From IMG/VR virus record IMGVR_UViG_3300045988_136506: DNA of 41,850 bases; one strand, given 5' to 3'. The translations under genes and the position numbers were made by a program. Under the pieces are notes generated by a model. That model was not told where the DNA came from. It did not search any database and worked only from the letters and a program-made list of their open reading frames with translations. Source of the DNA: a virus. This document shows positions 8,770 through 41,411 of the stretch, piece after piece. Positions within the stretch are counted from its first letter, which is position 1, and every line of letters starts with the position of its first letter.

Positions 8770-8797
8770 ATGCGTGTAATCAAAAGGAGGTTACAAT

Positions 8798-9412: not shown

Positions 9413-9424
9413 GAGAAAATAAAT

Positions 9425-9814
9425 ATGTGGAAAAATATTCAAATCAACAAACAAAATATTAAAGCTGAAACTATGAAAGCAGTATTAATCCAGATGCCAC
9501 ACAATTCAAATTACGATGGTTTCAGTTTCTGGCATCCTTCAAAATTAGTAAGAACTGGCTACAATTCAAACGCTTTAAGTATTGGTTATAATGATGATTT
9601 TACTTTTAAATTAATTAAGCATGGTAAAGGTAAATATAATTCAAGAGATATTATAGCTGAAGAAGTAATAGGTGTTGAAGAATTTGAAGAAGCTTTTGGG
9701 GCAATGAATGAAAATATTACTGCCCCTCATACAAAAAATATTTATGAAACACACAAACCAGCTCCACTGGAAGTAAAAGAAGTTTCAGTATTGGATGAAT
9801 TGAAAGATGAATAA
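9425..9814 (+). CDS. hypothetical protein
   Basis: 129-aa ORF with an RBS GGAG 8 nt upstream. Its stop overlaps the start of the next gene (ATGAATAA). Confidence 0.5.
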   Translation: MWKNIQINKQNIKAETMKAVLIQMPHNSNYDGFSFWHPSKLVRTGYNSNALSIGYNDDFTFKLIKHGKGKYNSRDIIAEEVIGVEEFEEAFGAMNENITAPHTKNIYETHKPAPLEVKEVSVLDELKDE

Positions 9815-11021
9815 TCAAGAATTAGCAATTGCTAAATTATCCAAATTAAAAGTCGGTGCTTTGTTCATGGAAATGGGTACTGGTAAAACAAAAGTTGCAC
9901 TTGATTTGATAGCTTCTAAAAAAGATAAAATTAATTACATTCTTTGGATTTGCCCATTTTCAATTAAACAAGAAATCGAACAAGAACGCCTAAAGTGGCA
10001 TCCTGAGCTAAAAATAGACATTATAGGTGTTGAAACTATTTCACAAAGTAGTAAAGAATATTTGAGAGTTTTTAACAAAGTAATTGAATCAAAATCATTC
10101 ATTGTAGTGGATGAAAGTCTTAAAATTAAGAATATGACCGCCAAAAGAACTAAGCGGATACTTAAGCTTGGAAGCTATGCCAAGTACAAGCTTATCTTGA
10201 ACGGAACACCTCTATCAAAAAATGTCCTTGATTTATACCCCCAAATGGAGTTTTTATCCCCTAAAATACTCAATATGTCTATTACCCAATTCCGAAATCA
10301 GTATTGCGAATATTACCTTCAAGGAAGGCTTAAAAACAAGGTTAAAAAACAATATAACATTGAACATTTAGTTTCATTAATAAAACCATACATATTTGAC
10401 AGTAAACTAGATCTTGGCAAGGATAAGACTTACCACCAAATAAATTACTCAATCGAAGACCTGGAAGAATATGAAAACATTAAACATGGCTTTCTTGGAT
10501 TTGATAATGATATTGCGTTCTTCTCTTTGGCTACACTACTCCAGAAGCATTATTGCACTCAAAAAAGTAGACTTGAGCTAATGAGAAAAACAATAAATTC
10601 TATTGATGGGCAAGTGATAGTATTTGTTAAATATCTTGACAGTATCCCTAGTGAAGAAACTCACAAGATTATTGGTGATATGAGTAATTCTAAAAGAGAT
10701 ACTATCATCCAGGAATTTAGAGAAGGTAAATTTAAAACACTGTACATAACTTATGGTTGTGGTTCATTCGGTTTAAATTTACAAAATTGCAGAAACATTA
10801 TATTTGCTGATCATACTTTTGATTATTCCCAACGGATTCAAGCTGAAGCTAGAATATTCAGAATGGGGCAAGAATATGATGTTGATTACTATGATATGAA
10901 TTGCAATTGTGGATTGGATAAACTTATCCGTGGATGCTTAAACAAAAAAATTAAATTACTTGATGAAGTTAAAGAAGAAATTGAAAAGAAAGGAGTTGAA
11001 GAATGGCTAAAAACTATTTAG
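9807..11021 (+). CDS. SNF2-like ATPase/helicase; a short second paralogue of the gene at 4285..5574
   Basis: Motif I MEMGTGKTKVALD, motif II VVDESLKIKN, motif VI QRIQAEARIFRMGQ. The 404-aa ORF overlaps the downstream gene by 19 nt. Confidence 0.7.
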   Translation: MNNQELAIAKLSKLKVGALFMEMGTGKTKVALDLIASKKDKINYILWICPFSIKQEIEQERLKWHPELKIDIIGVETISQSSKEYLRVFNKVIESKSFIVVDESLKIKNMTAKRTKRILKLGSYAKYKLILNGTPLSKNVLDLYPQMEFLSPKILNMSITQFRNQYCEYYLQGRLKNKVKKQYNIEHLVSLIKPYIFDSKLDLGKDKTYHQINYSIEDLEEYENIKHGFLGFDNDIAFFSLATLLQKHYCTQKSRLELMRKTINSIDGQVIVFVKYLDSIPSEETHKIIGDMSNSKRDTIIQEFREGKFKTLYITYGCGSFGLNLQNCRNIIFADHTFDYSQRIQAEARIFRMGQEYDVDYYDMNCNCGLDKLIRGCLNKKIKLLDEVKEEIEKKGVEEWLKTI

Positions 11022-12277
11022 ATAAAAATGTATATCAGCTAGCACTAGAACGCATAGCTTATTTATTTAATGAGTTTGATAATGTTCTAGTGGCTTTTAG
11101 TGGTGGAAAAGATAGTACTGTATGTCTTGAGTTATGCTATGACTATGCTAAGGAAAACGGCTTATTAAACAAGTTGTCAATGTATCACTTAGATTATGAA
11201 GCTCAATACCAAATGACTACCGATTTTGTAGATGAAACGTTCAAGCGCTATTCTGATATTGAGAGATATTGGCTTTGTCTTCCAATTAAAGCTCAATGCT
11301 GTACTAGTATGACATCTGGGTATTGGATTCCATGGGAAGAATCTAAAAGAGCTATTTGGGTTAGAAAAATGCCTACATATGATTACGTTATTAATCAGCA
11401 TAATTGCCAGTTTGATTACCACGGCTTTGATTATGATGTTCAAGATAGATTTTGCGATTGGTTTAAATCAAAACACGGTAAAACAGCTGTTGTAATAGGA
11501 ATAAGAACGGATGAATCGTTAAACCGATTTAGAGCAATAGCGAGTGATCACGCTGTTAAATATAAGGGTAAATCATGGATTAATGGAAACAAGGCTTATC
11601 CAATTTATGATTGGCATGTTCAAGATGATTGGATATATTTTGGAAAGTTTGCTAAGCGATACAATAAGTTATATGATTTGTACTATCAATCTGGGCTAAG
11701 CGTTGACCAAATGAGAGTCGCAAGTCCATTCAATGATTGTGCATCAAACACCTTAAAACTCTATAAAGTTATTGATCCAAATAACTGGGGAAAGATGATT
11801 GGTAGAGTTAACGGTGTTAATTTTACCGCTATTTATGGTGGAACTACTGCTATGGGATGGAATAAAATAACTAAACCTAAAGATTTTACATGGAAGCAGT
11901 ATTGTTATTTTTTGCTCAATACTTTGGATGAAAAAACAAAGCAACATTACTTAAACAAATTAAACACTTCAATTAAGTTTTGGAAAGATAAAGGCGGTTG
12001 TTTAAGCGATGAAACAATTAAAGAATTGCAAAAAGACAACATTAATTATATAGATAAAGGCTATACCAGTAATTATAGTACCAATAAAAAAGTAATTGCA
12101 TTTAATGACTATTTAGATGATACAAATGTAACCAATTTTAAAGAATTACCAACATATAAACGTATGTGTATTTGTATAATTAAAAATGACTATTATTGTA
12201 AATATATGGGCTTTAGCCAAACCAAAAATGAAATAGAGAAAAGAAAGAGAGCTATAGAAAAATATGCAAAATTATAA
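11003..12277 (+). CDS. PAPS-reductase-family (PP-loop ATP pyrophosphatase) protein, IbrA-like
   Basis: PP-loop AFSGGKDSTVCLEL near the N-terminus. The 424 aa size with a long C-terminal extension matches IbrA-type proteins. It is translationally coupled to the downstream ParB-like gene. Confidence 0.7.
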   Translation: MAKNYLDKNVYQLALERIAYLFNEFDNVLVAFSGGKDSTVCLELCYDYAKENGLLNKLSMYHLDYEAQYQMTTDFVDETFKRYSDIERYWLCLPIKAQCCTSMTSGYWIPWEESKRAIWVRKMPTYDYVINQHNCQFDYHGFDYDVQDRFCDWFKSKHGKTAVVIGIRTDESLNRFRAIASDHAVKYKGKSWINGNKAYPIYDWHVQDDWIYFGKFAKRYNKLYDLYYQSGLSVDQMRVASPFNDCASNTLKLYKVIDPNNWGKMIGRVNGVNFTAIYGGTTAMGWNKITKPKDFTWKQYCYFLLNTLDEKTKQHYLNKLNTSIKFWKDKGGCLSDETIKELQKDNINYIDKGYTSNYSTNKKVIAFNDYLDDTNVTNFKELPTYKRMCICIIKNDYYCKYMGFSQTKNEIEKRKRAIEKYAKL

Positions 12278-12776
12278 ATCACCAGTTTACAATGTTAAAG
12301 CTGTACCAATAGAAAAGATACAAGCAAACGCTTATAACCCTAATCATGTTGCCGTGCCAGAAATGAAGCTTCTTTATAAGTCAATTCTTGAAGATGGATA
12401 TACTATGCCAATAGTGTGTTATTATCTTAAAGATCAAGATAAATATGAAATTGTAGATGGATTCCATAGATATAGAACAATGCTGGAACACAAGGATATT
12501 TACGAACGTGAAAATGGATGTCTTCCAGTAGTTGTAATTGATAAAGATTTATCCAATAGAATGGCTTCAACCATCCGCCATAATAGAGCTAGAGGTTCAC
12601 ATTCGATTGAATTAATGACTAATATAGTTGCTGATTTAGTTAAGAGTGGAATGTCGGATGCATGGATTATGAAAAATATAGGTATGGATGCTGAAGAACT
12701 TCTTAGACTTAAGCAAATAAGCGGACTTGCTGAGTTATTCAAGGATAAAGAGTTCAGTAAAGGTTGGGAAGAATAG
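12264..12776 (+). CDS. ParB/Srx-fold nuclease-domain protein, IbrB-like
   Basis: ParB N-domain motif VDGFHRYRT and the Arg-rich segment HNRARGSHS. The 170-aa ORF overlaps the PAPS-reductase gene by 14 nt. Confidence 0.7.
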   Translation: MQNYKSPVYNVKAVPIEKIQANAYNPNHVAVPEMKLLYKSILEDGYTMPIVCYYLKDQDKYEIVDGFHRYRTMLEHKDIYERENGCLPVVVIDKDLSNRMASTIRHNRARGSHSIELMTNIVADLVKSGMSDAWIMKNIGMDAEELLRLKQISGLAELFKDKEFSKGWEE

Positions 12777-23231: not shown

Positions 23232-24602
23232 TCATTGTTTTGTTCCATTACCTTGTAACCAAGTAAGTAGATCCCCAGTAGGTGATGTAGCGAAGATAAC
23301 TGTGCGGTAAGCTTCATTTGTCCACGCATGGGAGTTAACTTCATATACATTCGTTGTTCCGTATACCAAATATGCAGCCATCGGACTAGAAAAATTATAG
23401 CTAAATTTGCTATACGAATTTCCATTTGACGTAAAGTTAATATCGTGTGACCAACTTTTAACTCCAAAGGTTAAGTCTGCATTCAACACCCAAGTTTCGC
23501 CTGTACTTGGTTCTTCACTGCTTGATTTTTCAAACACAACTCCACCATCCAAATAAAACTTACTTACTTCATTTCCGTTATAAATAACCTTTTTAACATT
23601 GTTATAAGTAACTCCAAAGAGTGAAATGTTATAAATAGTTTTGCCAGTGTCTATTGCTAATTTTAGATATTTACCATTAGCAAAATCTAAATCGGTTAAG
23701 TTATATTTAGATTTATTTTCATCATCAATTAAAGTGATGAATTCTTCTTGAGTAACTAGCGTATCACTATCACTTGCATAATCTTCATAATTAAATGTTG
23801 CACCATTCCATATTTTTCTTGAATTATTGTTTGTAAAGCTAGATGTTTCAGTTAAATATTTAGAGCAACTAGTACAAGTAGTTTTACTTGCTCCACTTAT
23901 TGATACAGCACTAGCACAATAATTATGTGTACTGCTATAAATATGAGGGCAAAATCCACCAATATTGAAATATTGCTCACCACTTTTTTCTTGTACTGCA
24001 ATAGTACCAAAAGCAAAGCATCTGTATAATTTAGTGTATCTTGAATAACCAATAAATCCACCAACATATATACTTCTACTAGAACCAGTTATATTAATAT
24101 TTACATTACTTATACAGTCTTTAAATGTCATATAGTTGGAGTCACCATAGCACGAACCTATAAAGCCACCAACACCTCTAAAAGCATATTGAGTGTATAA
24201 GTAGTTATGTGTAACATTTATAGTTCCTTGAACAGATACATTTTCAATTTGTGGTGCTTTATAATAAACTCCACCAGCTAAAATACCAGTACAGTTATTA
24301 TAACCAGTTGAATTAATAGTTGCATTTTCAAATACTAGATTTTTAATAGTACAATCACCTAACATTCTAAAGAATCCAACCAAGTTATTATCATAAGTAG
24401 AATTAATAGTAATAGTCATATTTTTAATTTTGTGACCATTACCATTAAGAGTTCCATTAAAACTTACATTAACATCTTCTGGTGTTCCAATAGGTGTCCA
24501 TTTTTCTAAGCTTGATAAGTCAATATCACAACCTAACTCATAATCGCCTGTTAAATCGTTTTGGATTGCTTGTAAGCCTTCAACTGTTGTAATAGTTATC
24601 AT
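23232..24602 (-). CDS. right-handed beta-helix (pectate-lyase-like) protein; putative virion-associated adhesin or glycan-degrading protein
   Basis: N-terminal signature LQAIQNDLTGDYELGCDIDLSSLEKWTPIGT...FNGTLNGNGHKIKNMTI, followed by N/T/G-rich repeats. The 456-aa ORF overlaps the upstream gene by 4 nt. Confidence 0.5.
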   Translation of the reverse strand: MITITTVEGLQAIQNDLTGDYELGCDIDLSSLEKWTPIGTPEDVNVSFNGTLNGNGHKIKNMTITINSTYDNNLVGFFRMLGDCTIKNLVFENATINSTGYNNCTGILAGGVYYKAPQIENVSVQGTINVTHNYLYTQYAFRGVGGFIGSCYGDSNYMTFKDCISNVNINITGSSRSIYVGGFIGYSRYTKLYRCFAFGTIAVQEKSGEQYFNIGGFCPHIYSSTHNYCASAVSISGASKTTCTSCSKYLTETSSFTNNNSRKIWNGATFNYEDYASDSDTLVTQEEFITLIDDENKSKYNLTDLDFANGKYLKLAIDTGKTIYNISLFGVTYNNVKKVIYNGNEVSKFYLDGGVVFEKSSSEEPSTGETWVLNADLTFGVKSWSHDINFTSNGNSYSKFSYNFSSPMAAYLVYGTTNVYEVNSHAWTNEAYRTVIFATSPTGDLLTWLQGNGTKQ

Positions 24603-25726
24603 GAGGATGCCTCACTTGTTGTAATAGTTAATGTTCCAGTAGTGGAATCAAAAGTTACGGTTGGGGTAATAGCTTCATAAGTACCAATTACGCCACCTAT
24701 ATCAATGTCTTTTTTAATGTTTCCAGGCGTTAAAGTGGATGGTTTAGTAATAGTTACTTGGGATAGTGTTTTACCGCTTGTAGGGGTGATTACTTGATTA
24801 CCAGTAGCCATTGATAAATCAACTGTCTTAGTCTCTTCAACTGGAGCTGAAGCACCTTCATATGTTCCAGTAACTCCACCGATATTTACACCACTTTTAA
24901 CATTTCCAGCGGTTAAATTTTCAAGCCCTTGTAATGTGTAATTACTACCAGCAAATATAATAGTGTTTCCATCATTTTGTAAGTCAATAACGTTGTCTTG
25001 GTCGACAATTATTCTAGGCTTATTAATTGGTGTGTTAATATAAATACTTGCATATTGTGCAGGTAAACCATCTTCAAGTTGTATTTGGTTTGTGGTTAAA
25101 GTTAAGCCAGTTAGGTTTATATAACTATTTGGAATAGCTCCAACAGTTACTTTAGATAAGTATTTTCCGCTATCAGGCGTGATTTCTTGAATTGAAGTAC
25201 TTGGGGTTGCGGTTTTTTCTTGAGTTTGTGGGGTTTCACATACATGAGTACCAGTTAATTTAGTACCGTTTACATATGCTGTTTTACCACTCAATATGTC
25301 CGATTGTGTAGCATCTGCATCAGAAGTATCAACTTTAGATCCACCTGAGCCACCACTTCCATTAGAGTTGAGTGTATTTTTTATACTTGTAAGTTTTGTG
25401 TTGGTTTGTTCTAAAGTTTCATTGTTATTTTGTAAAGCTGTGTTTATTTCTACTTTACTGGTAGTGATTGTTATAGTATCAGAAAAGCTTGAACTTTGTG
25501 AAAAAGTATTATCTGTAAAAGTGATTTCTCCTGAAGTTGTTGAAACTACGGAATTTACAACATATCCAGGTTTTAAAGTTATAGTAAAAATAGTGTTGCC
25601 TTGAATAACTTGGATGCTTTGTCCACTTTCAGTCCAATCAGAAACTATTCCGCTTCCGTTATACGAACCTTGGACTTTTTGTACACCATTATCAAAATTA
25701 ATAGTTACTTGTCTTGTTACTGGCAT
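24599..25726 (-). CDS. fibre-like protein with a GSGGSGGS linker and 2-3 internal ~55-70-aa repeats
   Basis: The repeats read ITP(D/T)SGK(Y/T)LS(K/Q)VT...N(I/V)...(I/G)GGV(T/I)GTYE(G/A). The protein is 375 aa and Thr/Ser-rich. Confidence 0.45.
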   Translation of the reverse strand: MPVTRQVTINFDNGVQKVQGSYNGSGIVSDWTESGQSIQVIQGNTIFTITLKPGYVVNSVVSTTSGEITFTDNTFSQSSSFSDTITITTSKVEINTALQNNNETLEQTNTKLTSIKNTLNSNGSGGSGGSKVDTSDADATQSDILSGKTAYVNGTKLTGTHVCETPQTQEKTATPSTSIQEITPDSGKYLSKVTVGAIPNSYINLTGLTLTTNQIQLEDGLPAQYASIYINTPINKPRIIVDQDNVIDLQNDGNTIIFAGSNYTLQGLENLTAGNVKSGVNIGGVTGTYEGASAPVEETKTVDLSMATGNQVITPTSGKTLSQVTITKPSTLTPGNIKKDIDIGGVIGTYEAITPTVTFDSTTGTLTITTSEASS

Positions 25727-25779
25727 ATGTCTTTATCCTTTCATTAATAATTTATACCCATTTTATTATTTTTTCAATA

Positions 25780-27153
25780 TTAAGTTGTCTCAGAAACAAC
25801 TAGTGTTTCTCCAGTATTAACATTTACCCAATTGCTATCGCCTTCATCATACAAATAAGCTTCTGCAAATTGTGCAACATTATTGCTATCTCCTATGTAA
25901 ACTCCTTTAACTGGAATAGTAGCTTGATTACTAATCAATTCAAACGAATAATTATTATTACCATGAGAATAAATTAATACATTATTATTGTCTAAAGTCA
26001 TTCCACTAGGTGTAAACATATATATTGCGGTACTATATGTTGAACTAGCGCTTTTACCACCAAATATATAAATCTTTCCATTCACTTCACTACAGCATGC
26101 TTGTGATAATCTAGTAGGTAATCTTATATTTAAAGTAGTAAGTGTTTCAGTTGTTGGGTCAAATTTATAAATAATATTTTCATATGAAGCATAACTATAT
26201 CCACCAAATATATAAATCTTTCCATTCACTTCACTACAGCATGCTTCACTTAAGCCATTACTCGCAGGAATTGTTGCACTTAAAGTCGTGATTGCCTCAG
26301 TTGAGGTGTCAAACTTTTGTATAATTTTACCTTGAGTTTTATAGTTAGCACTACTTTCTCCGCCAAATATATAAATATATTTGCCTGATCTCGCATAACA
26401 TGAATTACTCGAACCATATTGCAATGTTGCGCTTAAAGTTGTGAGCGTTTCGGTTGTTGTATCAAATTTATAAATAGTTTTATAGTAAGTACTACCCAAA
26501 TAACCACCAAATATATAAATATTATTTCCAAATTTAGCACACTTTGGTCTATATATATTAGGAAAACTTACTGTTATTTCTTCAATTGTTTCAGTTGTTA
26601 TATTAAATTTGTGAATTGGATTATTAGGTGGGAATATATAAATATAATTTCCTACTAACGCACAAGCTCCAGAAGCGCTTGTGCTTGTGGCTATTGTGCT
26701 TAAAGTTTTGGTTATAGTATTAAATTTATAAATTATACTACCAACTGGTATATAAATATAATTACCAGCTGTAACGCAACTTAAGTTACTTAATTGAGGC
26801 ATTACTTGAGTTAAAGTTTCAATAGCTTCATTAACAGAACCATTTAACTCACTATCTACTTTAAATGTTAATTCAGTACTATCATTTAAAATACATAATT
26901 TTTTATGGTTAGCTGTTAGAATATCATTTGCGTTGCTAGTAACAAGTATATTGTCTGTAATATTAGCACCAGTTGATAAATTCTCCACTAAAGTTTCAAT
27001 CTCTTCAACTAGCGCCTTATTTTGGTTAACTAAATCAGTGTTTGAACTAACTAAGCTTTCACTTACTGGATCAGCGCAATCGGCTGGTAATTCGATTAAT
27101 TTATTATTAAGAGTTATTAATTTTCCATCAACTGATAAATATCTTTTTGCCAT
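25780..27153 (-). CDS. Kelch-repeat beta-propeller protein
   Basis: About six ~50-aa repeats, each carrying G(K/N)(Y/I)IYIFGG...IYKFD..TETLTTL, which matches the Kelch motif. Total 457 aa. Confidence 0.65.
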   Translation of the reverse strand: MAKRYLSVDGKLITLNNKLIELPADCADPVSESLVSSNTDLVNQNKALVEEIETLVENLSTGANITDNILVTSNANDILTANHKKLCILNDSTELTFKVDSELNGSVNEAIETLTQVMPQLSNLSCVTAGNYIYIPVGSIIYKFNTITKTLSTIATSTSASGACALVGNYIYIFPPNNPIHKFNITTETIEEITVSFPNIYRPKCAKFGNNIYIFGGYLGSTYYKTIYKFDTTTETLTTLSATLQYGSSNSCYARSGKYIYIFGGESSANYKTQGKIIQKFDTSTEAITTLSATIPASNGLSEACCSEVNGKIYIFGGYSYASYENIIYKFDPTTETLTTLNIRLPTRLSQACCSEVNGKIYIFGGKSASSTYSTAIYMFTPSGMTLDNNNVLIYSHGNNNYSFELISNQATIPVKGVYIGDSNNVAQFAEAYLYDEGDSNWVNVNTGETLVVSETT

Positions 27154-27156
27154 ATG

Positions 27157-28191
27157 TTATACCTCATAAAATGGAATTAATAGTGAAACTATAATAACAT
27201 CATCCACATTTGTAGTTGGAATTGACAGTATATGTGTTTGAGTGTGATATGTTCCAGGATGTCCTGTTTCATCAAAATCCAAATTATGAAAAGTGAATAA
27301 TCCACTAGTAATTTCCTCAGCACTATTACGCTTATGATAGTAGTATAAACCTGATTTAGTAAGTGTCACATAATAGCATTCTGGTTCTTCTTCTGAGTCA
27401 AACGCACCAGTTAATACTGTGTTAATAGATTTTACTTTAGTAACATCTGCACTAGTTAATACTGTGTTAATAGATTTTACTTTAGTAACATCTGCACTAG
27501 TTAAATCTAAAGCTGGAATAACAGTATTATCAACTGCGGTTGTTTCAGCAATAGCAATTTGAACGCTATATGTTGCTCCATTAGTAAATGTGAAAACTAA
27601 ATTTCCGCTTTGGTCTTTACTTAATCCAGTGATAACTGCACCTTCAACTATAAGTCTCCACTTAGTTGTATCAGTTGGTAATATTCCAGTAATTTCAGCA
27701 TCACTAATACACATGTAAGAGGAATAGTTGTAATATACAATGTTAGGTCTTTTATAAGCCTTTGTTGAGTCATAATCACTTACATAAAGTCCATTTAAAA
27801 TAGCTTTAGCTTGAAGCTCTATTTCTTCAATTTCGGCTATTTCTTCATTACTTGGTTGAGTGTAATTGGTCGGTTTTAATCTTGGAATAATTGGAATTGT
27901 AATAGATTTGATAGTTTTATAGGTTAAGCCAGTATTTGTATAGATATAGGCTAGAATATCGTATTTTTCACCTAGAAGTGTGTTAGGAATTGATACTTCA
28001 CAAGTTCCATCATTTTTAAGTATGCCTTGAACTGCTAAAGCTTCAATTGATTTCTTATTGCAAAAATGTACTTTTGGGCTAACAGCTTCAAAATCAATAC
28101 CGCTTATTACAAGTGTTTGGTATGAGTCCCATTGGTAGAGGTTCTCGGTTGTTAAATCGTTTATCGATTCATTAAATTCAGCTTTTATCAT
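27157..28191 (-). CDS. hypothetical protein translationally coupled to MuF; contains a perfect 15-aa tandem duplication
   Basis: 344-aa ORF overlapping the MuF gene by 14 nt. The peptide SADVTKVKSINTVLT occurs twice. Confidence 0.5.
   Translation of the reverse strand: MIKAEFNESINDLTTENLYQWDSYQTLVISGIDFEAVSPKVHFCNKKSIEALAVQGILKNDGTCEVSIPNTLLGEKYDILAYIYTNTGLTYKTIKSITIPIIPRLKPTNYTQPSNEEIAEIEEIELQAKAILNGLYVSDYDSTKAYKRPNIVYYNYSSYMCISDAEITGILPTDTTKWRLIVEGAVITGLSKDQSGNLVFTFTNGATYSVQIAIAETTAVDNTVIPALDLTSADVTKVKSINTVLTSADVTKVKSINTVLTGAFDSEEEPECYYVTLTKSGLYYYHKRNSAEEITSGLFTFHNLDFDETGHPGTYHTQTHILSIPTTNVDDVIIVSLLIPFYEV
27411..27500. repeat. perfect 45-bp x 2 tandem duplication inside CDS 27157..28191
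   Basis: 27411-27455 is identical to 27456-27500 (ttaatactgtgttaatagattttactttagtaacatctgcactag). A degenerate partial third copy follows. Confidence 0.85.
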
Positions 28192-29113
28192 TTGTTACCC
28201 TCCAAAATTCTCTTTTGAATTCTTCATAGTCTTCTTTATTTTTAAATTCCATAAGTTCATTATCTTCACCATTCATTTTAGTGAATGATTTATCAAGATT
28301 CCATTTTGCTCTTTGGTTAACCACACAACGGCAATTAATATCTTCACTTGGAATTCCAAAACCACCTGGATACATGGCTTCATCACCATCAGCATTTTTA
28401 AATGGTTTATCAATATCAACTACTTGTCCATCTAAGAATCTGTGATTTGATCTAGTTTTTCCATCCAGTGTAGCGTCCCATTCTCTTACAATATTAGCGC
28501 CTTTTTTCTTGGCTTTAACTTGAGCGTTATAAGTTGATTCTTGGGATATTCTATGTCCCTCAGTTCTTGCAATTCTTAATGAGTTATTGTAAGTATTTTG
28601 GCTTGCGTTTCTAATTAGGCTTGCCATTTTTTCATAGGAATAACCTTGACTTATTCCACGTGATACCTCACTTCTAATTATACGCTTTAAATCCTTAATT
28701 TCAATACCTAAGCTATCGTATAAACTCTTGGATAACTTAGTATTTAATTGGACAGCTTTAACTACTTGTTCTTGGTCTATTGGGAATATTAAGGGTATGC
28801 CTTGATTTTGTAAGTCGTACAGTGTACCAATCCAAGATTCTTCATAGCATTTAGTAAGATATTCACTAATAGTAGTAAAGTTTTGAGTGTGTAATCGGTC
28901 TAAAATAGCTTCTATTTGCTTTTTTAGAGCTTTTTGATATTCCACTTGATAAATTATACTTTGTAAGTTTTGCGTGTCCGTACGTGCCTGTAAATCAACT
29001 ATTTTAACCATTATATCTTGAAGTGCTTTTTCATAAGTCTTAGTTATTTCTTCAATAAGTTCAGCTTCATTTTTAAGCACTTGCTTTTGAACTCTTTTTT
29101 GGTATCTATTCAT
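28178..29113 (-). CDS. head morphogenesis protein (MuF / SPP1 gp7 family)
   Basis: Conserved RIARTEGHR motif. The 311-aa ORF lies immediately downstream of the portal. Confidence 0.75.
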   Translation of the reverse strand: MNRYQKRVQKQVLKNEAELIEEITKTYEKALQDIMVKIVDLQARTDTQNLQSIIYQVEYQKALKKQIEAILDRLHTQNFTTISEYLTKCYEESWIGTLYDLQNQGIPLIFPIDQEQVVKAVQLNTKLSKSLYDSLGIEIKDLKRIIRSEVSRGISQGYSYEKMASLIRNASQNTYNNSLRIARTEGHRISQESTYNAQVKAKKKGANIVREWDATLDGKTRSNHRFLDGQVVDIDKPFKNADGDEAMYPGGFGIPSEDINCRCVVNQRAKWNLDKSFTKMNGEDNELMEFKNKEDYEEFKREFWRVTNDKS

Positions 29114-30570: not shown

Positions 30571-31938
30571 TTAGTAAAGCCATTGTCCTATTGGCTGATT
30601 ATGTTCATAAACACCTGTTACGGCATCTGGACAGTCATCATGTGCGTTTTTACCTTCTTTTTGATACCTTATCATCATATCCGCAAACTCAGGATATTTA
30701 TCAATCCAGTTATGAGGGTAAAACACATGAGCCATAACTGAAGCGCTGTTTGAAAATATTCTAGCTTGCTTATTTTCACTTTGGTGAAACCATTGGATAT
30801 TCGTATGAGTGTTTTTTAATTTTTGACATTCAGTTTTTACATTTCTTGCAAAACTTCGACCGCCATTATTAGATTCAATAATAGCACAACCCACTTTATC
30901 TTTAGTTACCATTTTAGCCACCATTGGTTCAGTTACTTCCATAGGCTCTTTAGTACAAACTATATCAAGTATGTAATAATCTTCTCCAACAACTAAATAA
31001 TCAATTGAGCATAAATAGTCTTCTCCAGTATCAGCCGTATCAGTGTAATTAAGAATATATTTATAATTCTTTGGTAATTCGGTATAAGTTTTGAATTGAG
31101 TATATAAGCGACCTTTAATATCGATTGGCTCTTGTTGATAGTTAGCTTCAACTATCTCCTTACTCATTGACTTAGTTTTAAATAAAAAATCTTCTTTGTT
31201 TAAAATTTCATCACATAGCATTGAGCCGTTTTCTTGAAGTGCTTTATAGTTGATATGTCTACATGGATAGTTATCTAGTATATAGCCAGCTAAGTCTTTT
31301 TTAGCCCATCTAGTCATGATTATGATTAACTTAAATCCACTCTCAGTACGTGATAGCATTGTGTCCGTAAACCAGCTTATATGCTTATTTAGCGTGTTTT
31401 CGTTAAAAGCTTCTTCACTTGATTTAATCAAGTCATCAATAATCATAATGTTACAACCAAATCCAGTTGCAGTACCATTTGGTGATGTTGCCAGATAGTT
31501 CGTTTGTTGAGAACCTTCCAAAGCCCATTTATTAGCGCTTGATTCACCACGCTTAACTTTTGTATCAGGGAATATATCAGAATAAGACAATATACCTTGT
31601 GTTTTTTCTTCAAGAATTGCATCACGGACTTGTTTAGCAAAAGTCATAGATAATGTTTCATTGTATGATCCAGTCATAACTTTGTTGTGAATAGATTGAC
31701 CAAATAACCATTTTACGAATTGTGTAGCAGTTCTACTTTTTCCGTGTCTCGGTGGTAAATTGATTACCAGGATTTTTTCATCCGATTCGTAGAAGCTTTG
31801 AAGCTGATAGCACATGTCTTTTAAGAATGGTCTTGACTCTCTATAAAAATCTGAAGCAGTTAATTTACAAAATTCCCAAAAATCCCTACGTGCTAACTCA
31901 AGCTTAGCTTGATAAATTATTTCACTTGGAATCCCCAT
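30571..31938 (-). CDS. terminase large subunit
   Basis: P-loop PPRHGKS; the ATPase is followed by a nuclease domain. The ORF is 455 aa and follows TerS with a 17-nt overlap. Confidence 0.85.
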   Translation of the reverse strand: MGIPSEIIYQAKLELARRDFWEFCKLTASDFYRESRPFLKDMCYQLQSFYESDEKILVINLPPRHGKSRTATQFVKWLFGQSIHNKVMTGSYNETLSMTFAKQVRDAILEEKTQGILSYSDIFPDTKVKRGESSANKWALEGSQQTNYLATSPNGTATGFGCNIMIIDDLIKSSEEAFNENTLNKHISWFTDTMLSRTESGFKLIIIMTRWAKKDLAGYILDNYPCRHINYKALQENGSMLCDEILNKEDFLFKTKSMSKEIVEANYQQEPIDIKGRLYTQFKTYTELPKNYKYILNYTDTADTGEDYLCSIDYLVVGEDYYILDIVCTKEPMEVTEPMVAKMVTKDKVGCAIIESNNGGRSFARNVKTECQKLKNTHTNIQWFHQSENKQARIFSNSASVMAHVFYPHNWIDKYPEFADMMIRYQKEGKNAHDDCPDAVTGVYEHNQPIGQWLY

Positions 31939-32353
31939 TGTCGATAAGTTTCTTTAACTCTTCAGTTGTTAAGTCTTTCAAAGGATTTTTAACTTCAGCA
32001 TTTACATTTACATTTTCGGTCGGTTTATCGCCTATAGAATCACGTATGTATTGAGCGCTTGCTAAATCACCATTTAAAGCTCTTTGGACTTGTCTTAATT
32101 GAATTGCTTCATTAACTGTTATATTCTTACCTTTTAACCCTTTAAAGCTCTTTATTTCTTCAATATCAGCTTCTTTACGCTTTTCTAATGGCATTGATAA
32201 GAATATCTCAAGTATTGCTTTCGTGCGTTTTCTTTTACGCATTACTTCAACTGATTTTTTTCCACCCTTGGATGAATTGACTCTTCTTTCTTCAGCAGTA
32301 AAGGTCTTTCCAAAGTTCTCAGGTGGATTTCCTCTACTTGGTTTAGTAGCCAT
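31922..32353 (-). CDS. terminase small subunit
   Basis: 143-aa basic protein with an HTH, located directly upstream of TerL. Confidence 0.6.
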   Translation of the reverse strand: MATKPSRGNPPENFGKTFTAEERRVNSSKGGKKSVEVMRKRKRTKAILEIFLSMPLEKRKEADIEEIKSFKGLKGKNITVNEAIQLRQVQRALNGDLASAQYIRDSIGDKPTENVNVNAEVKNPLKDLTTEELKKLIDNGDSK

Positions 32354-32361: not shown

Positions 32362-32478
32362 CTACTTTCTTTTAACTGTCTTTTTTGTTGGTTTTGGTCT
32401 AGGGTGTGTACCATTCATTTTATTGGCAGTTTCTTTGTTCATTTTTTCAAATAGTTTATCTATTTCTTTATCTGTCAT
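32362..32478 (-). CDS. 38-aa Lys-rich micro-ORF (MTDKEIDKLFEKMNKETANKMNGTHPRPKPTKKTVKRK)
   Basis: RBS AAAGGAGA. The stop lies 8 nt before the TerS start. Its C-terminus is paralogous to the 37-aa peptide at 33297..33410. Confidence 0.35.
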   Translation of the reverse strand: MTDKEIDKLFEKMNKETANKMNGTHPRPKPTKKTVKRK

Positions 32479-32493
32479 AATTCATTCTCCTTT

Positions 32494-33297
32494 CTACCAT
32501 TTATTGCTTCCAGCTTTAATAGTTTTACTCATTGTTATAGCATTTCTACTTAAGATATTATAGTAACCCCCACCGCTAGTAATTACATTATACCCTTTTG
32601 CCATAGCATATATACTAACTGCTGATGATTGATCACATTTACGTAATGCTTTACCTAACTTTGAACCACTTCTCATTTCACTTAGCATACCACTAGTTGC
32701 TTTACTATAAGTAATTATCTTGGCATTGGAATTTAATTTAGCTCTAACAACAGCTGTTTTCTTAATATTACCTCTAGTATTACCATAAAGGTTTGATTCA
32801 CCATAATCATCGGCAAAATAAATACCTCTACCATAAACTGAACCACCACTATCAGATACTCTAGTAACTGAACCACGTTGAACTTGTGATGCGATTGTAT
32901 CAGCATCCCACCTCATTCTATTTGTGCTATCATTAACTGAATTGACTGTTCTGAATAGTTCAGTTCCATTCATTGTATCAAGTACATTGTCATCTACTAA
33001 TTGAGGTTTGTCGTTTAAGCCCAAATTATACGTAAATTTTTGGAAGTCATTATCAGCTAAGAATACTGGGGCATCTTGAGATGCTAAATTTGATATTGCA
33101 TCAGCTTTTTGGTCATCACTCATATCCATAAAATTATTATAGTTTGTGCTAAATGATTGAGCTTGTTGGGTTGTATCAACTTGTGGTTGGGTTTGTTGTA
33201 CCTGAGAATTTTGAGGATTAACTTTTTGTGTAGCTGCATTAACAGTTGATGCAGATGATCCAGCGGTTCTCTTTCCCCCACGTGATGATTTAGCCAT
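32494..33297 (-). CDS. ADP-ribosyltransferase-like protein (PARP-like GIYFA motif) sharing its N-terminus with the upstream ART
   Basis: N-terminus MAKSSRGGKR followed by a Q/S/T/N-rich linker. ELFRTV supplies an Arg; YGRGIYFADDYGE supplies a PARP/ART-like G-I-Y-F-A motif. 267 aa. Confidence 0.4.
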   Translation of the reverse strand: MAKSSRGGKRTAGSSASTVNAATQKVNPQNSQVQQTQPQVDTTQQAQSFSTNYNNFMDMSDDQKADAISNLASQDAPVFLADNDFQKFTYNLGLNDKPQLVDDNVLDTMNGTELFRTVNSVNDSTNRMRWDADTIASQVQRGSVTRVSDSGGSVYGRGIYFADDYGESNLYGNTRGNIKKTAVVRAKLNSNAKIITYSKATSGMLSEMRSGSKLGKALRKCDQSSAVSIYAMAKGYNVITSGGGYYNILSRNAITMSKTIKAGSNKW

Positions 33298-33410
33298 TAC
33301 TTACCACGCTTCACTTTCTTAGTACTAGGTTTTTTGGTAACTTTTATTCCAGTGTTACCATTCCACCTATCATAGTCTTTTGGACTTGATTTTGTTTTTG
33401 TGTTTGCCAT
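33297..33410 (-). CDS. 37-aa Lys-rich micro-ORF (MANTKTKSSPKDYDRWNGNTGIKVTKKPSTKKVKRGK)
   Basis: RBS GGGGTGA. The stop TAA overlaps the ATG of the downstream ART-like gene (TAATG). Confidence 0.35.
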   Translation of the reverse strand: MANTKTKSSPKDYDRWNGNTGIKVTKKPSTKKVKRGK

Positions 33411-33422
33411 ATTTATCACCCC

Positions 33423-34169
33423 TTAAAATGTTTCAACATCTAAAATAACTCTTGGTCTTGAGCCTTTATTTCTAGGTGTTGCATATGTTCCATCATAATG
33501 AATACCTGTAATTCTTAAATTAGTGCCTTTATTCATTACAATTTCACTTTGAGCTTTAGCCCCTAAAACAACTTTACTATTGCTAGAAGCTTTAATATTC
33601 ATCACCACTTCTCTACCACCACCTAAAGGTTGATTAGGCGCAAATGGTGATTTACTAGCGTTATATGAGGTACTCATATATGCTGTTGTTTTTAATTCAG
33701 TACCAATTAATTTTGATTGTAATTGTGAATCGCTTAATTTTGTATAATCGCTAATACCGCACTTTTGTAAAATATCATCATGACAGTATCTTACTAAGTT
33801 AGTATCTTTACCTAAATCGTGCATACCGTTTTGTAGATTATCATTAATCCACCTTTCAGTTGCATTTAAAGGTAATCCATTATCCAATTTGTAATTCATA
33901 GATTGTGAATATGAATAGCCTTGACTATCTACCGCATCTGATATGTACATTTTTTGAGCTGATACAAAGTCAGGGTCTTGATATGAATCAGCATTAGCAC
34001 TAATAATTGCTTGTGCATCATTATCATCCATATTTTGATATGATCTAGTTTGAGTTGTGTTTATATTACCAGTTTGTCTAGCTGGTGTATTAGATTGAGC
34101 TATTGAAGCCCCTCTTCCTGGGTTTGGTGCAACACCACCTCTTCTTCCACCTCTTGAACTTTTAGCCAT
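33423..34169 (-). CDS. R-S-E class ADP-ribosyltransferase (C3/iota-like motif spacing)
   Basis: N-terminus MAKSSRGGRR. Arg region LVRYCHD, STS motif YMSTSYN about 40 aa later, and Q-x-E (AQSEIVMN) about 40 aa after that. The spacing matches binary-toxin/C3 ARTs. 248 aa. Confidence 0.55.
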   Translation of the reverse strand: MAKSSRGGRRGGVAPNPGRGASIAQSNTPARQTGNINTTQTRSYQNMDDNDAQAIISANADSYQDPDFVSAQKMYISDAVDSQGYSYSQSMNYKLDNGLPLNATERWINDNLQNGMHDLGKDTNLVRYCHDDILQKCGISDYTKLSDSQLQSKLIGTELKTTAYMSTSYNASKSPFAPNQPLGGGREVVMNIKASSNSKVVLGAKAQSEIVMNKGTNLRITGIHYDGTYATPRNKGSRPRVILDVETF

Positions 34170-35190
34170 TATTCCACCTCTTGCTTGTAAAACTTTCTAT
34201 AAACTCTATATTGCCTTTTAAGCCATCTACTTTACTTCCATAAACTAAAATCTTACTAGGCTTTAGAGTTTCAATCATTGTGTTATATTCACGCTTGAAA
34301 TAGTCTTTTAATTCTTGTGAATTAGTCCACATACTTGATATAGCAACTATTCCACCTTTAGGTTCACCCTCTAAATAAAACTCTAGTGAGCGTTCATCCG
34401 TTGAAGCTTTAATACACGGTATTATATTTACTCCACGTTCTTGTAAATATTTAGCTACCCAATGTTTACGATAATGATTAAATATTTGAGTTGCCAATGG
34501 CATATCACCATAAGGACTAAAATCTGGTGCAATTACTGCGCCATATTCACTTAGCTTCTTTACATATGCATCTGGATTGTTCCAAATTCTTATAAACTGG
34601 TAATCATCAATAAAGAAATGTACACCCTTATTTTTACTAGGTGCTTTATCGGATAGTACATAATTAAATCCTATCCACTCGGTTATATCAGGTATGCTAT
34701 AGACTGGCTCTAATGGTGGTATATCATATTTGCCCACTCCTGGGAATTGAGCTATCTCTAAGTTTAAAATATTAGCAACTCGCTTTTGAGTCTTACTTTG
34801 TTCCTCTTTATGTTCCTCTTCTTCATCCACAAATTCAAAACCAAATTGTCCCATATCAATATTGATATCTTCCAATTCTAGTTCTATCATATCCCAATCA
34901 AACTCGGATTCGGCTACTTTATTATGAGCTAAAGTATATGCTTTTCTTTGTTCATCGGTGAGATTATCCAAGCGGATGCAAGGGACTTCAGTCATGCCTA
35001 ACTTTTTACAAGCTAGATATCTACCGTGTCCCTCAACGATTATATTGTCTTTCCCCCATATGCCTATTGGATCATTCATTCCAAATTCCCTAATTGAGTT
35101 CATAATCTCTTCAACTTGCTTCTTAGGGTGTTTCTTGGCGTTATTCTTATAAGGGGTTAATTTTTCAATGCTTATATTTTCAATTTTCAT
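34162..35190 (-). CDS. ParB/Srx N-terminal nuclease-like domain fused to a C-terminal DUF4417-like domain
   Basis: N-terminal ~95 aa (KLTPYKNNAKKHPKKQVEEIMNSIREFGMNDPIGIW...EGHGRYLACKKLG) are closely similar to the N-terminus of the ParB-MTase at 40230..41411. 342 aa. Confidence 0.6.
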   Translation of the reverse strand: MKIENISIEKLTPYKNNAKKHPKKQVEEIMNSIREFGMNDPIGIWGKDNIIVEGHGRYLACKKLGMTEVPCIRLDNLTDEQRKAYTLAHNKVAESEFDWDMIELELEDINIDMGQFGFEFVDEEEEHKEEQSKTQKRVANILNLEIAQFPGVGKYDIPPLEPVYSIPDITEWIGFNYVLSDKAPSKNKGVHFFIDDYQFIRIWNNPDAYVKKLSEYGAVIAPDFSPYGDMPLATQIFNHYRKHWVAKYLQERGVNIIPCIKASTDERSLEFYLEGEPKGGIVAISSMWTNSQELKDYFKREYNTMIETLKPSKILVYGSKVDGLKGNIEFIESFTSKRWNNG

Positions 35191-35375: not shown

Positions 35376-35407
35376 TTATAAACAAAAAGACTAGGAATAA
35401 GTCCTAG
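35376..35407 (-). terminator. rho-independent terminator after the ArpU-like gene
   Basis: CTAGGA-ataag-TCCTAG, followed on the minus strand by TCTTTTTGTTTAT. It overlaps the ArpU stop codon. Confidence 0.5.
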
Positions 35408-35706
35408 CCTTGGTTATAAATATTCAATAATTCTTCCATGCCTTTAGTATGTAACTTGTTGATCCACTGATATGACATTTTCATTCTCTTAGCCACTTCT
35501 GTGAAACTATAGCCGTTTATGTACCTCAACATCATACACATTCTAGCCCCCTTATGAGTAATCTTGTTAATGTTAATTCTAAGTGACATCACACGCTCAG
35601 TTAAATCATTCAAATTAACATCATCATTCAAATCCTTAAGTGAATCAGAATAAACTTCATAGGTCAACGCATCATCCAATAATCTCTTCAATTCTTCATC
35701 TGTCAT
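35404..35706 (-). CDS. ArpU/RinA-family late transcriptional activator (sigma-70 region-4-like)
   Basis: 100 aa from MTDEELK, with GGAGGA 6 nt upstream. The C-terminal HTH YINGYSFTEVAKRMKMSYQWINKLHTKG resembles sigma region 4. It lies immediately upstream of the packaging operon. Confidence 0.6.
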   Translation of the reverse strand: MTDEELKRLLDDALTYEVYSDSLKDLNDDVNLNDLTERVMSLRININKITHKGARMCMMLRYINGYSFTEVAKRMKMSYQWINKLHTKGMEELLNIYNQG

Positions 35707-35738
35707 TGCTGTTCCTCCTGGTATCAAAAAATCAAAAA

Positions 35739-40229: not shown

Positions 40230-41411
40230 TTACCCATTGAGCAATACTCCTTTACTTCCTGTCATATTCTCCCAACGATTTATTATAGTATCAACGTATC
40301 TTGGATCTAATTCCATTATTCTAGCGTTACGGTCTAATTGTTCACTTACCATTAGAGTTGTACCGCTACCTCCGAATAAATCTAATACTATATCACCTTT
40401 TTTACTACTATTAAGCATGGCTTTTTCTACAAGCTCAACTGGTTTCATAGTAGGATGTAAATCATTCTTTTTGGTTCTTTTTATATCCCAGATATCAAAG
40501 TTACTTCTATCTCCATAAAAGTTGTGTTCATTAAACCAACCATATACAATAGGTTCATATTTACTCATATAATCACTATTAGATAAAGTGTGATTTCCTT
40601 TGTTCCATATTATTAAGGCTTTATATCGATTATCTAGTGTGTCTAAAGCTCTAAATATATAATCTAGTCCTAATCTATAAAAACAAACATAATAAGCCCC
40701 TTCATTAAAGTTTTTTATCATATTAAATGTATCTAGTATGAATTTATCTCCATCTTCTCGACTCATTTTATCATTTTTTATAGCACCGAACTTAGCATTA
40801 TGGCTTTTAGTTCCATCACCATGAACATTACCTTCAAATCCCATTAAATAAGGTGGGTCAGTAAATACCATATGTGATTTTTCACCATTCATTAGTTTCT
40901 CAACATCATTAATATCCGTACTATCTCCACACATCAAACGGTGGTTTCCTAGCTGGTATATATCACCGTATTTAGCTTTGGGTTCTTCTGGAACTTCAGG
41001 TACTTCATCTTCTATCACTTTTGGTTCTTCTTCATCAATTGACAAATCGAATCCAAAATCCATCATATCTATATCAACAATAGAATTTAATTCTTCAGCT
41101 AATATTTCAAAGTCCCATTCACTCTCAGCACTTTTATTGTGAGCTAGTGTGTAGGCTTTCCTTTGTTCTTCACTCAGATGATCCAATCTGATTATTGGGG
41201 CTTCTTTATAACCCAATTTCTTTAAAGCCATTAATCTTCCATGACCTTCAATTATTAAGTTATCTTCTCCCCAAACTCCTATTGGGTCGCACATCCCAAA
41301 TTCTTTTATGCTGTTTGCTATTCTTTTAACTTGTTCTTTAGGATGCTTTTTTGCATTTTTATGGTATTTCTTTAAATCATTGATATTTACATATTCAATT
41401 TTTAAATTCAT
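40230..41411 (-). CDS. ParB/Srx N-domain fused to a beta-class N6-adenine/N4-cytosine DNA methyltransferase
   Basis: ParB N-terminus (HPKEQVKRIANSIKEFGMCDPIGVW...EGHGRLMALKKLG). MTase motif IV FTDPPY comes before motif I DLFGGSGTT, the beta-class order. 393 aa. Confidence 0.75.
   Translation of the reverse strand: MNLKIEYVNINDLKKYHKNAKKHPKEQVKRIANSIKEFGMCDPIGVWGEDNLIIEGHGRLMALKKLGYKEAPIIRLDHLSEEQRKAYTLAHNKSAESEWDFEILAEELNSIVDIDMMDFGFDLSIDEEEPKVIEDEVPEVPEEPKAKYGDIYQLGNHRLMCGDSTDINDVEKLMNGEKSHMVFTDPPYLMGFEGNVHGDGTKSHNAKFGAIKNDKMSREDGDKFILDTFNMIKNFNEGAYYVCFYRLGLDYIFRALDTLDNRYKALIIWNKGNHTLSNSDYMSKYEPIVYGWFNEHNFYGDRSNFDIWDIKRTKKNDLHPTMKPVELVEKAMLNSSKKGDIVLDLFGGSGTTLMVSEQLDRNARIMELDPRYVDTIINRWENMTGSKGVLLNG

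Follow-up and report, generated by a model that had tools for sequence, protein, structure and literature searches.

Introduction

In phage T4, Alt and the internal proteins enter the prohead and reach the host together with the injected DNA (PMC5512222, PMC7697877), delivery with the phage DNA has been proposed for MuF toxins (PMC5576092), and polyvalent proteins are predicted to act as early, DNA-delivered effectors (PMC5512222). Head packaging has likewise been inferred for ADP-ribosyltransferases (ARTs) encoded beside terminase and portal genes (PMC9503650). ARTs adjoining terminase genes and phage effectors with small downstream open reading frames (ORFs) are already known. Here we analyze a 41,850-nucleotide stretch of viral DNA (IMG/VR record IMGVR_UViG_3300045988_136506; hereafter, the window) in which two ART-like genes, here termed ART-A and ART-B, open with a nearly identical Gly/Arg leader and are each followed by a gene for a basic micro-protein (mu1 and mu2). 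The preliminary description of this region (positions 32362 to 34169) had placed tandem ART-like genes and micro-ORFs directly ahead of the terminase gene terS, and both its coordinates and its features are confirmed. It had also taken two ARTs and two micro-proteins to be an unusual arrangement, whereas we find them to be one case of a polymorphic slot that is widespread and associated with DUF4417 genes, whose leader-tagged products we refer to as cargos. Within the scope of our literature search, no report was found of the Gly/Arg leader, of its strict link to DUF4417, of cognate Lys-tailed micro-proteins or of leader variants with a Prp-type motif.

As with the capsid targeting sequence (CTS) of T4 Alt and internal proteins I to III, a short conserved N-terminal peptide is found here on otherwise unrelated small proteins of one phage group, ARTs among them, encoded by late genes. 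The internal-protein loci of T4-like phages are also hypervariable. The CTS and the Gly/Arg leader are nonetheless unrelated in sequence, and hosts and virion types differ, the phages considered here being siphophages of Firmicutes. T4 removes its targeting sequence with a prohead protease, whereas here no cleavage site is evident 3' of the leader and a host Prp-type site lies 5' of it in four variants. Its ties to DUF4417 and to Lys-tailed micro-proteins further set the leader apart from the CTS, and packaging is a proposal here.

MuF toxins join a constant N-terminal part to a variable toxin domain, with ART and metallopeptidase domains that overlap the cargo repertoire described below and a small ORF after the toxin gene (PMC5576092). 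The slot shares this variable toxin domain, the small downstream ORF, the position in the packaging module and a proposed delivery with phage DNA. In MuF toxins, however, the constant part is the MuF domain, while in slot cargos a leader of 10 residues and the disordered linker after it take that place, and ART-A, ART-B and their listed relatives are stand-alone proteins of 200-300 aa, with no MuF fusion. MuF toxins also sit after the portal gene, whereas the slot lies 5' of terS, after DUF4417, and its downstream ORFs encode poly-lysine-tailed micro-proteins of 33-52 aa. Polyvalent proteins contain the same domains (ParB-like, ART, MPTase and RadC/JAB; PMC5512222), again overlapping the cargo repertoire, and the same early effector role is predicted for them, but they fuse these domains in a giant polypeptide, where the slot has separate small genes, each leader-tagged. 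Their ARTs are, furthermore, of the H-Y-D type (Tox-ART-HYD2), in contrast to the R-S-QxE signature of ART-A and to ART-B, which has R/H-Y with D, N or S at position 250.

A conserved leader and a polymorphic slot linked to DUF4417

The sequence MAKSSRGG(R/K)R opens both ART-A and ART-B and no other ORF in the window. The codons differ between the two genes (AGT TCA AGA GGT GGA in ART-A and TCA TCA CGT GGG GGA in ART-B), and the conservation is therefore at the protein level and not the result of a recent DNA duplication; the same codon variation led us to reject conservation of the leader as an RNA or Shine-Dalgarno-like element. In alignments of the two families (A1 and A2), a fraction of 0.84-0.89 of the sequences has the consensus residue at leader positions, as against 0.46-0.51 at linker positions and 0.77 within the domains. 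These alignments were selected by catalytic domain, while the codon set was selected by leader motif, so it is A1 and A2 that provide unbiased support. The leader is thus a conservation island, selected at the protein level, ahead of a variable disordered linker, and in this the near-identical N-termini and low-complexity linker of the preliminary description are borne out.

The family profiles of ART-A and ART-B align over their N-terminal regions (positions 1-143 and 1-150, respectively; 91.8% probability, E 7e-7), and a natural chimera in alignment A2 (P0148) carries the leader, linker and first-helix start of ART-A in residues 1-54 and the body of ART-B thereafter, which indicates that the N-terminal module is exchangeable between cargos. 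Kyte-Doolittle values (11-residue window) do not exceed 0.4 in the first 70 residues of either ART, and their first 60 residues contain no Cys. A Sec, Tat or lipoprotein signal, the possibility against which the preliminary description had set its own proposal, is thereby discarded, there being neither a hydrophobic segment nor a lipobox Cys.

Leaders are of two types, MAK(S/G)SRGG(K/R)R or MGGRG(S/A)SSG, and both are found on ART-A as well as on ART-B. Leader type tracks phage lineage and not cargo family, which is the pattern expected of a signal that co-evolves with a phage-encoded receptor. In the window, terS itself begins with a Gly/Arg-rich and loosely leader-like MATKPSRGNPP (32309-32353; MATKPSRGNPPENFGK), and Terminase_4-type terS genes start with M..G.GGAR.GAGRKKKP in three other loci (L143, 6065-6601; L144, 3005-3538; L145, 3891-4421). 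These N-termini could reflect a binding partner in common with the leader or a common mode of DNA binding.

A scan of IMG/VR with a back-translated leader pattern returned 49 loci, some 34 of them real and about 15 attributable to chance by a rough estimate. In 33 of the 34 real loci the tagged gene comes directly after a ParB_N-DUF4417 homologue and before terS, and the remaining locus is truncated by its own end. Most of the cargos in these loci are not ARTs. The association also holds in reverse: when 77 loci were selected by DUF4417 alone, the nearest ORF of 80 aa or more on the downstream side began with a Gly/Arg leader (MAKGSRGGKR, MPKGNRGGK or MGGRGASSG) in 49 of them. Altogether, leader-tagged proteins form 27 sequence clusters, or some 25 unrelated families, in hundreds of phages. 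The occurrence of so many families in the same genomic slot backs the view of the preliminary description that the N-terminus is a common targeting-type signal.

Besides ART-A and ART-B, the cargos include a glutamine deamidase of papain fold (PF15644 Gln_amidase, 53.8 bits), an ExE-type ART (PF03496, 69.8 bits), HExxH proteins with weak similarity to Tox-MPTase2, JAB-like proteins with an HxHPx(n)SxxD motif and several further families to which Pfam and motif inspection assign no function. To judge from these signatures, the repertoire is toxin-like. As read from sequence, the slot opens with a DUF4417 gene, which in the window is fused to a ParB_N nucleotide-binding domain. After it come between one and four small enzymes (100-290 aa), each built of a leader of about 10 residues, a disordered linker of 15-45 residues and a toxin-type catalytic domain.

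The slot is seen with three types of terminase: a T7-RNaseH-type TerL, Terminase_3 (L008) and HNH plus Terminase_4 (L143-L145). The backbone of the latter three loci comprises HNH, a stand-alone DUF4417, a Terminase_4-type terS and up to four cargos with the MGGRG leader, ART-B and ART-A among them. Hence, the linkage is to DUF4417, and not to ParB_N or to a given terminase. The same slot is present in Streptococcus prophage Javan377, with two MGGRG-leader ORFs, and in the slot ORF of phage MM1 a GGGRG stretch is internal and followed by a JAB motif. Some DUF4417 loci (L059, which is ORF29 of Streptococcus phage MM1, and L120-L141) have no leader ORF directly downstream and carry instead a conserved element of 84-90 aa ('..GDY.IY..', '..LELY..'), either as a separate ORF or as the front part of a fusion that continues with an internal GGGRG stretch and a JAB-like domain. 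This element is an alternative front end of the same slot.

DUF4417 has no known function in the literature (bioRxiv 10.1101/2025.10.10.680097), and no PDB relative of it is detectable by sequence. IMG/VR contains at least 571 DUF4417 loci, and the domain has invariant H, DD, S and D residues. A single-sequence match to the SdeD phosphodiesterase (E 0.19) was not reproduced with a profile and was rejected. The ParB_N part of the anchor protein resembles NTP-binding/kinase-type folds such as SerK and Srx. Three ParB_N proteins are encoded in this one 42-kb phage: a stand-alone protein (12264-12776), the DUF4417 fusion (34162-35190) and a fusion to an N6/N4-methyltransferase (40230-41411).

A Prp-type motif ahead of the leader

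Ribosomal protein L27 is cleaved by the Prp protease at the motif MLxx(D/N)LQ(F/L)F'A(S/H)KK (PMC9405229). In phage 80alpha, the capsid and scaffold proteins are cut by host Prp at this motif, which has also been noted on the capsid protein of phage 80 and on a tail protein of phi13 (PMC5744158). The same motif stands at the extreme N-terminus of four leader proteins, where it directly precedes the leader: MKLDIQLF-GGRG, MKLNIQLF-GGRG, MTFDLQFF-GGNG and MPEFDLQLF-SGNG (hyphens mark the junction). The extension, present in a minority of leader proteins, is short and ends in (D/N)(L/I)Q(F/L)F immediately 5' of GGRG, GGNG or SGNG. At P1' the L27 motif has Ala, whereas these variants have Gly or Ser, and cleavage is here a prediction from the motif. 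Because four variants place a Prp-type motif directly before the leader, we infer that the Gly/Arg leader would need to be a free, mature N-terminus. The known phage occurrences of the motif favor a context of virion assembly.

Organization of the locus

All the genes of the slot lie on the minus strand, in one tight operon with the order ParB_N-DUF4417, ART-A, mu1, ART-B, mu2, terS, terL and portal. The features of the locus, in order of transcription, are as follows.

35404-35727: sigma70-region-4-like regulator (PF04545), transcribed ahead of the hairpin
35387-35411, minus strand: terminator-like hairpin, a 10-bp stem followed by a T-run, 3' of the regulator gene
34162-35190, minus strand: ParB_N+DUF4417 protein, 342 aa (PF14386, 158.6 bits; PF02195, 28.5 bits), first gene of the operon
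33423-34169, minus strand: ART-A, 248 aa (R127 codon, 33789-33791; STS, 33666-33674; QxE, 33543-33551)
34140-34169, minus strand: ART-A leader MAKSSRGGRR, followed by the disordered variable linker (34035-34139, residues 11-45)
33297-33410, minus strand: mu1, basic micro-protein of 37 aa (MANTKTKSSPKDYDRWNGNTGIKVTKKPSTKKVKRGK), cognate to ART-A
32494-33297, minus strand: ART-B, 267 aa (R116 codon, 32950-32952; GRGIYFADD, 32806-32832; R251, 32545-32547)
33268-33297, minus strand: ART-B leader MAKSSRGGKR, followed by a Q/T/N/S-rich disordered linker (33148-33267)
32362-32478, minus strand: mu2, basic micro-protein of 38 aa (MTDKEIDKLFEKMNKETANKMNGTHPRPKPTKKTVKRK), cognate to ART-B
31922-32353, minus strand: terS, 143 aa (phrog_2412), overlapping terL; downstream boundary of the slot
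30571-31938: terL (phrog_30251, E 3.9e-165)
28178-29113: MuF, a separate gene of 311 aa

The hairpin bounds the late, packaging operon on its upstream side and is separated by a gap of about 200 nt from the ParB_N+DUF4417 gene; no further terminator-like site is found on the minus strand between it and terS. The start of ART-A overlaps the stop of the ParB_N+DUF4417 gene by 8 nt. A GGGGTGA Shine-Dalgarno site of its own precedes mu1, the stop of which overlaps the ART-B start in the sequence TAATG; the mu1 product is of 37 aa when read from ATG, and the GTG start in the ORF listing gives 40 aa. The mu2 gene has an AAGGAG Shine-Dalgarno site, and its stop lies 8 nt ahead of the terS ATG. Downstream of terL come an SPP1-type portal, MuF, four unassigned genes, a scaffold and the major capsid protein. 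We consider the operon to be late because the terminator-like hairpin is followed by overlapping or tightly spaced genes that run into terS, terL, portal and MuF. The window also carries an integrase, and the genome, that of a gut prophage, is of the temperate siphophage type, with about 42 kb.

ART-A is present in identical form on metagenomic contigs of 41.9-42.2 kb, and related sequences are found in metagenome-assembled genomes of Eubacteriales and Clostridia. By megablast and tblastn, neither the region nor either ART matched any of 50,697 GenBank phages, and no match was found for ART-A, ART-B, mu1 or mu2 in PHROGs, PADLOC or NCBIfam.

Two families of predicted ADP-ribosyltransferase fold

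ART-A contains R127 (LVRYCHDD), S166-T167-S168 (YMSTSY) and Q207-S-E209, at spacings of 39 and 41 residues, and thus has the R, STS and QxE elements with the iota/C3-like spacing of about 40 residues that the preliminary description had recognized in the 248-aa protein. R127, S166, S168, Q207 and E209 do not vary among 36 homologues (58-93% identity), and T167 hardly does. The match of ART-A to the Pfam ADPrib_exo_Tox model (PF03496) is a marginal pass, at 24.0 bits against a gathering cut-off of 23.4, and sequence and profile searches against PDB returned nothing significant. The AlphaFold2 model (mean predicted local distance difference test, or pLDDT, of 82.5; residues 1-25 disordered, with pLDDT below 50) places R127 in a strand (123-129), STS in a second strand (165-168) and E209 as the first residue of a strand that follows a loop, a modeled geometry that corresponds to the canonical R-S-E arrangement. 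Foldseek matches in PDB include CDTa, C3bot1/2, C2-I, VIP2, iota Ia, Certhrax and Plx2a (E 1.6e-9 to 3.6e-8, probability 1.0, template modeling score about 0.55-0.69), within a total of 137 matches with E of at most 1e-3.

ART-A is therefore predicted to be a C3/iota-like R-S-QxE mono-ADP-ribosyltransferase. With the C3 exoenzymes and the enzymatic components of binary toxins (CDTa, C2-I, iota Ia and VIP2) it shares the fold, the Arg of strand 1 and the STS of strand 2, and with C3 also the QxE of the ARTT loop, but sequence identity is only about 15%. Unlike these toxins, it has neither a secretion signal nor an adaptor domain for a binding component, and it is phage-encoded and leader-tagged. 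The presence of QxE instead of ExE argues against an arginine acceptor; C3 modifies Asn, while pierisin and Scabin modify guanine. By analogy with these enzymes, ART-A probably acts on a non-arginine acceptor.

The motifs of ART-B are F115-R116 and G156-RGIYFADD-164, and across 39 members (25-55% identity) G156, Y160 and R251 are invariant and R116 nearly so; at position 116 of strand 1 most members have R, a single divergent one has H and another has N. At position 250, D is frequent among divergent members and N prevails in the closer relatives, while the window has S. No invariant acidic residue is found in this alignment where PARPs have their catalytic Glu; the position that we take to correspond to PARP1 E988 is variable. 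No Pfam model passes its threshold, the PARP model (PF00644) scoring 18.9 bits against a cut-off of 26.7 and covering only the GRGIYFADD segment, and sequence and profile searches against PDB again gave nothing significant. The structural model (pLDDT 80.6, residues 1-35 disordered) carries a helical insert and yields weak Foldseek matches. In structure predictions, nonetheless, both proteins come out as ART folds, as had been supposed when the locus was first described. An exhaustive HMMER search for ART-B returned 348 clusters at 50% identity, nearly all of stand-alone proteins of 210-300 aa.

Comparison with PARPs shows the same GxGxYFA motif of strand 2, with its Tyr, and probably the same ART core fold, but ART-B has Arg in place of the strand-1 His of the PARP/H-Y-E clade and no conserved Glu at the E988 position. 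The PARP/ART-like core claimed earlier for the 267-aa protein hence stands as regards F-R, GRGIYFADD and the predicted ART fold, and does not stand as regards a standard PARP. RES toxins, such as MbcT and ParT, are described as R-Y-N NAD+ phosphorylases (PMC9503650), and their strand-1 Arg and strand-2 Tyr are likewise present in ART-B. ART-B is thus a stand-alone PARP/DT/RES-like protein of predicted ART fold with an R-Y site and without the canonical Glu, and this combination makes it closest in logic to RES toxins or to mono-ART PARPs that lack the Glu. Its activity could be that of a mono-ART, a NADase or NAD+ phosphorylase, or it could be a pseudo-enzyme. We know of no counterpart of the invariant R251 in PARPs, diphtheria toxin (DT) or RES toxins. 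A match of ART-B to a pre-ejectosome protein of cyanophage A4 was set aside and kept only as a lead, as the corresponding paper assigns no ART domain to it. ART-A and ART-B are, in sum, two ART families that are poorly or not annotated in current databases.

Cognate micro-proteins

Both mu1 and mu2 are kept in relatives whose ARTs are 45-75% identical, with nonsynonymous divergence (pN) of 0.12-0.35 against synonymous divergence (pS) of 0.45-1.0 and dN/dS of about 0.1-0.3 where computable. They are real genes under purifying selection. The preliminary description of the 37-38-aa peptides was right in treating them as real, translationally coupled genes, but not in considering them paralogous or in tying them to the downstream ART-B and terS genes. 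Their cores are unrelated (SPKDYDRW..GIKV.KKP in mu1, IDKLFEKMSRE.AN.MNGTHP in mu2) and their likeness is limited to a generic Lys-rich tail, on which grounds we rejected paralogy. In two loci (L144 and L145) ART-B precedes ART-A, yet each micro-protein still follows its own ART, and mu2 stays after ART-B both where other genes intervene before terS (L004) and where terL is of another family (L008). The micro-protein consequently belongs to the ART upstream of it, and these four loci also rule out a role of the micro-ORFs as leader peptides of the downstream gene. Stop-codon read-through joining ART and micro-protein was considered as well, both pairs being in frame in the window (33410-34169 and 32478-33297), and rejected; the frames differ in L004, L006 and L008, and the in-frame pairs of the window therefore look coincidental.

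The association extends beyond the ARTs, and many cargos are followed by a micro-protein of their own. These micro-proteins are of 33-52 aa and combine a cargo-specific core of about 20 residues with a generic poly-lysine tail, and other cargo families have a micro-protein family of their own, HExxH cargos being followed by Y.EP..Y.P...K-rich peptides.

Virion packaging and alternative explanations

Taken together, we favor, at slightly less than even confidence, the explanation that the locus is a two-cargo case of a leader-tagged effector slot of temperate Firmicutes siphophages, the cargos of which are loaded into the virion and injected. Packaging and injection would be the best reading of the operon position, of the domain repertoire and of the analogy with T4 Alt and its CTS and with MuF toxins, and the shared N-terminus points to an undescribed protein-trafficking signal, probably one for virion loading. 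Cargos would be made late, alongside terminase, portal, MuF and scaffold, and their free Gly/Arg N-terminus would be recognized by a phage component that brings them into the procapsid. The disordered linker might then let the small domains exit through portal and tail with the DNA, so that the enzymes could modify host targets as soon as the next infection begins. Each micro-protein may bind the cargo that it follows, serving as an adaptor or inhibiting that cargo in the producing cell, and its lysine tail may contact DNA or an acidic capsid surface.

Several observations weigh against this proposal. No leader protein has been directly detected in a virion, and the slot protein of Str01 is not listed in its virion proteome, the only one that we found for a phage with this slot, which comprises 12 proteins and is of low sensitivity (PMC6195288); the A25 homologue of the Str01 slot protein has no leader, which softens this negative result. 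The members of the ART-A and ART-B families are all stand-alone, with no fusion to MuF, to portal or to any other virion protein among them, and no prohead protease was recognized in the window for a T4-style removal of the targeting sequence. ART-B, without a canonical catalytic acid, may be inactive. The deamidase cargo is accompanied by both an acidic ORF of 73 aa and a Lys-tailed peptide of 35 aa, and no micro-protein follows the 133-aa cargo family or the ExE ART in L056. Finally, the association with DUF4417 could in part be inherited synteny within one broad phage group.

Some of these same observations bear on the main alternative, namely that the cargos are late intracellular or lysis-released toxins that are never packaged, with the micro-proteins as antitoxins or immunity proteins. 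Such toxins would be directed at the producing cell, for host shut-off or superinfection exclusion, or at neighboring bacteria after lysis, and the leader would serve otherwise, in RGG/AT-hook-like nucleic-acid binding or in regulation or modification by the DUF4417 protein. The small ORF after each toxin-like domain is reminiscent of toxin-immunity pairs (PMC5576092), and the lack of cargos fused to virion proteins and the Str01 virion list (PMC6195288) are in agreement with it, as are the Gly/Arg-rich N-termini of both leader proteins and terS, which would fit a DNA-binding arm, and the NTP-binding/kinase-type resemblance of the anchor ParB_N part. A generic poly-lysine tail is, however, unexpected in an immunity protein, and the separate acidic, immunity-like ORF of the deamidase cargo, besides its Lys-tailed micro-protein, implies that the micro-proteins are not simply immunity proteins. 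There is also no secretion signal to export a toxin, and the free leader, the disordered linker, the strict position in the packaging operon and the Prp-type motifs are left unexplained. Overall, we deem unpackaged toxins a rather unlikely account of the locus. A bolder variant of virion loading, in which leader, DUF4417 and Lys-tailed micro-proteins make up an unrecognized delivery system of Firmicutes siphophages, with DUF4417 as a dedicated loader or modifier that recognizes the free N-terminus of the leader, the micro-proteins as cargo-specific adaptors and any leader-tagged small enzyme being encapsidated and injected, seems doubtful to us. Such a system would amount to a modular, polymorphic injection cassette that could serve to tag foreign proteins for packaging.

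The leader might instead mimic the mature N-tail of L27 (ASKKGxGSTxNGRDS after Prp cleavage) and direct translation-targeted effectors to the ribosome or to the L27/Prp pathway. The L27/Prp motif (PMC9405229) does stand directly ahead of a Gly-rich N-terminus in the four variants, and both N-termini are small, basic and rich in Gly, Ser, Lys and Arg. Yet this likeness is one of composition, with no supporting alignment statistic, P1' is Gly or Ser and not Ala, most leaders lack any Prp motif, and the phage proteins that have it are structural virion proteins (PMC5744158), which favors packaging; we give this idea very little credence. Even less can be said for a leader that arose by chance or for trivial reasons (tandem duplication, initiation context or a secretion signal), with micro-ORFs as non-coding spacers. 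Starts of the MAK... kind are common in highly expressed genes, and the AGAGGTGGA codons are Shine-Dalgarno-like, but the codons differ between the two leaders, the leader is kept across some 25 unrelated families in hundreds of phages, it contains no hydrophobic segment and no Cys, and the micro-ORFs have conserved cores and are under purifying selection. This last explanation can be regarded as already refuted.

Other features of the window

On the plus strand (7324-12776), a four-gene island lies beside a tyrosine integrase (7324-8436). It encodes a 129-aa protein (phrog_27058), an SNF2-like helicase (9807-11021) with partial matches to ZorD, DpdE and DrmD, a DndC/PAPS-reductase-like protein (11003-12277) and a ParB-like protein of 170 aa (12264-12776). 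The latter two resemble an IbrA/IbrB pair, and the island may be a prophage-borne defense or DNA-modification module. A second SNF2-like helicase gene is found on the minus strand (4285-5574), in opposite orientation to that of the island (9807-11021, plus strand), and the best match of both is phrog_62.

The four large genes between MuF and scaffold (23232-28191, minus strand), an unusual place, encode proteins of 344 aa, 457 aa (a Kelch-repeat beta-propeller; PF24681, 158 bits), 375 aa and 456 aa (with M26_N and GLUG motifs). None of them is leader-tagged, and they may be extra head-associated or cargo proteins.

Implications for temperate phages of Firmicutes

Phage-delivered host-modifying enzymes are known in the case of T4 Alt and have been inferred for MuF toxins and polyvalent proteins, but the way in which phages other than T4 choose stand-alone effectors for delivery is largely unexplained. 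The locus described here gives a concrete and testable candidate signal: a leader of 10 residues that some 25 families of enzymes carry in hundreds of phages, gut and streptococcal, a number of them inducible in culture. If the leader is indeed a packaging signal, it would explain how the virions of temperate Firmicutes phages come to be armed with exchangeable effectors, it would provide a testable function for DUF4417 and it would define a new class of cognate micro-proteins. It would also supply a tag for loading foreign proteins into the particles of Gram-positive phages.

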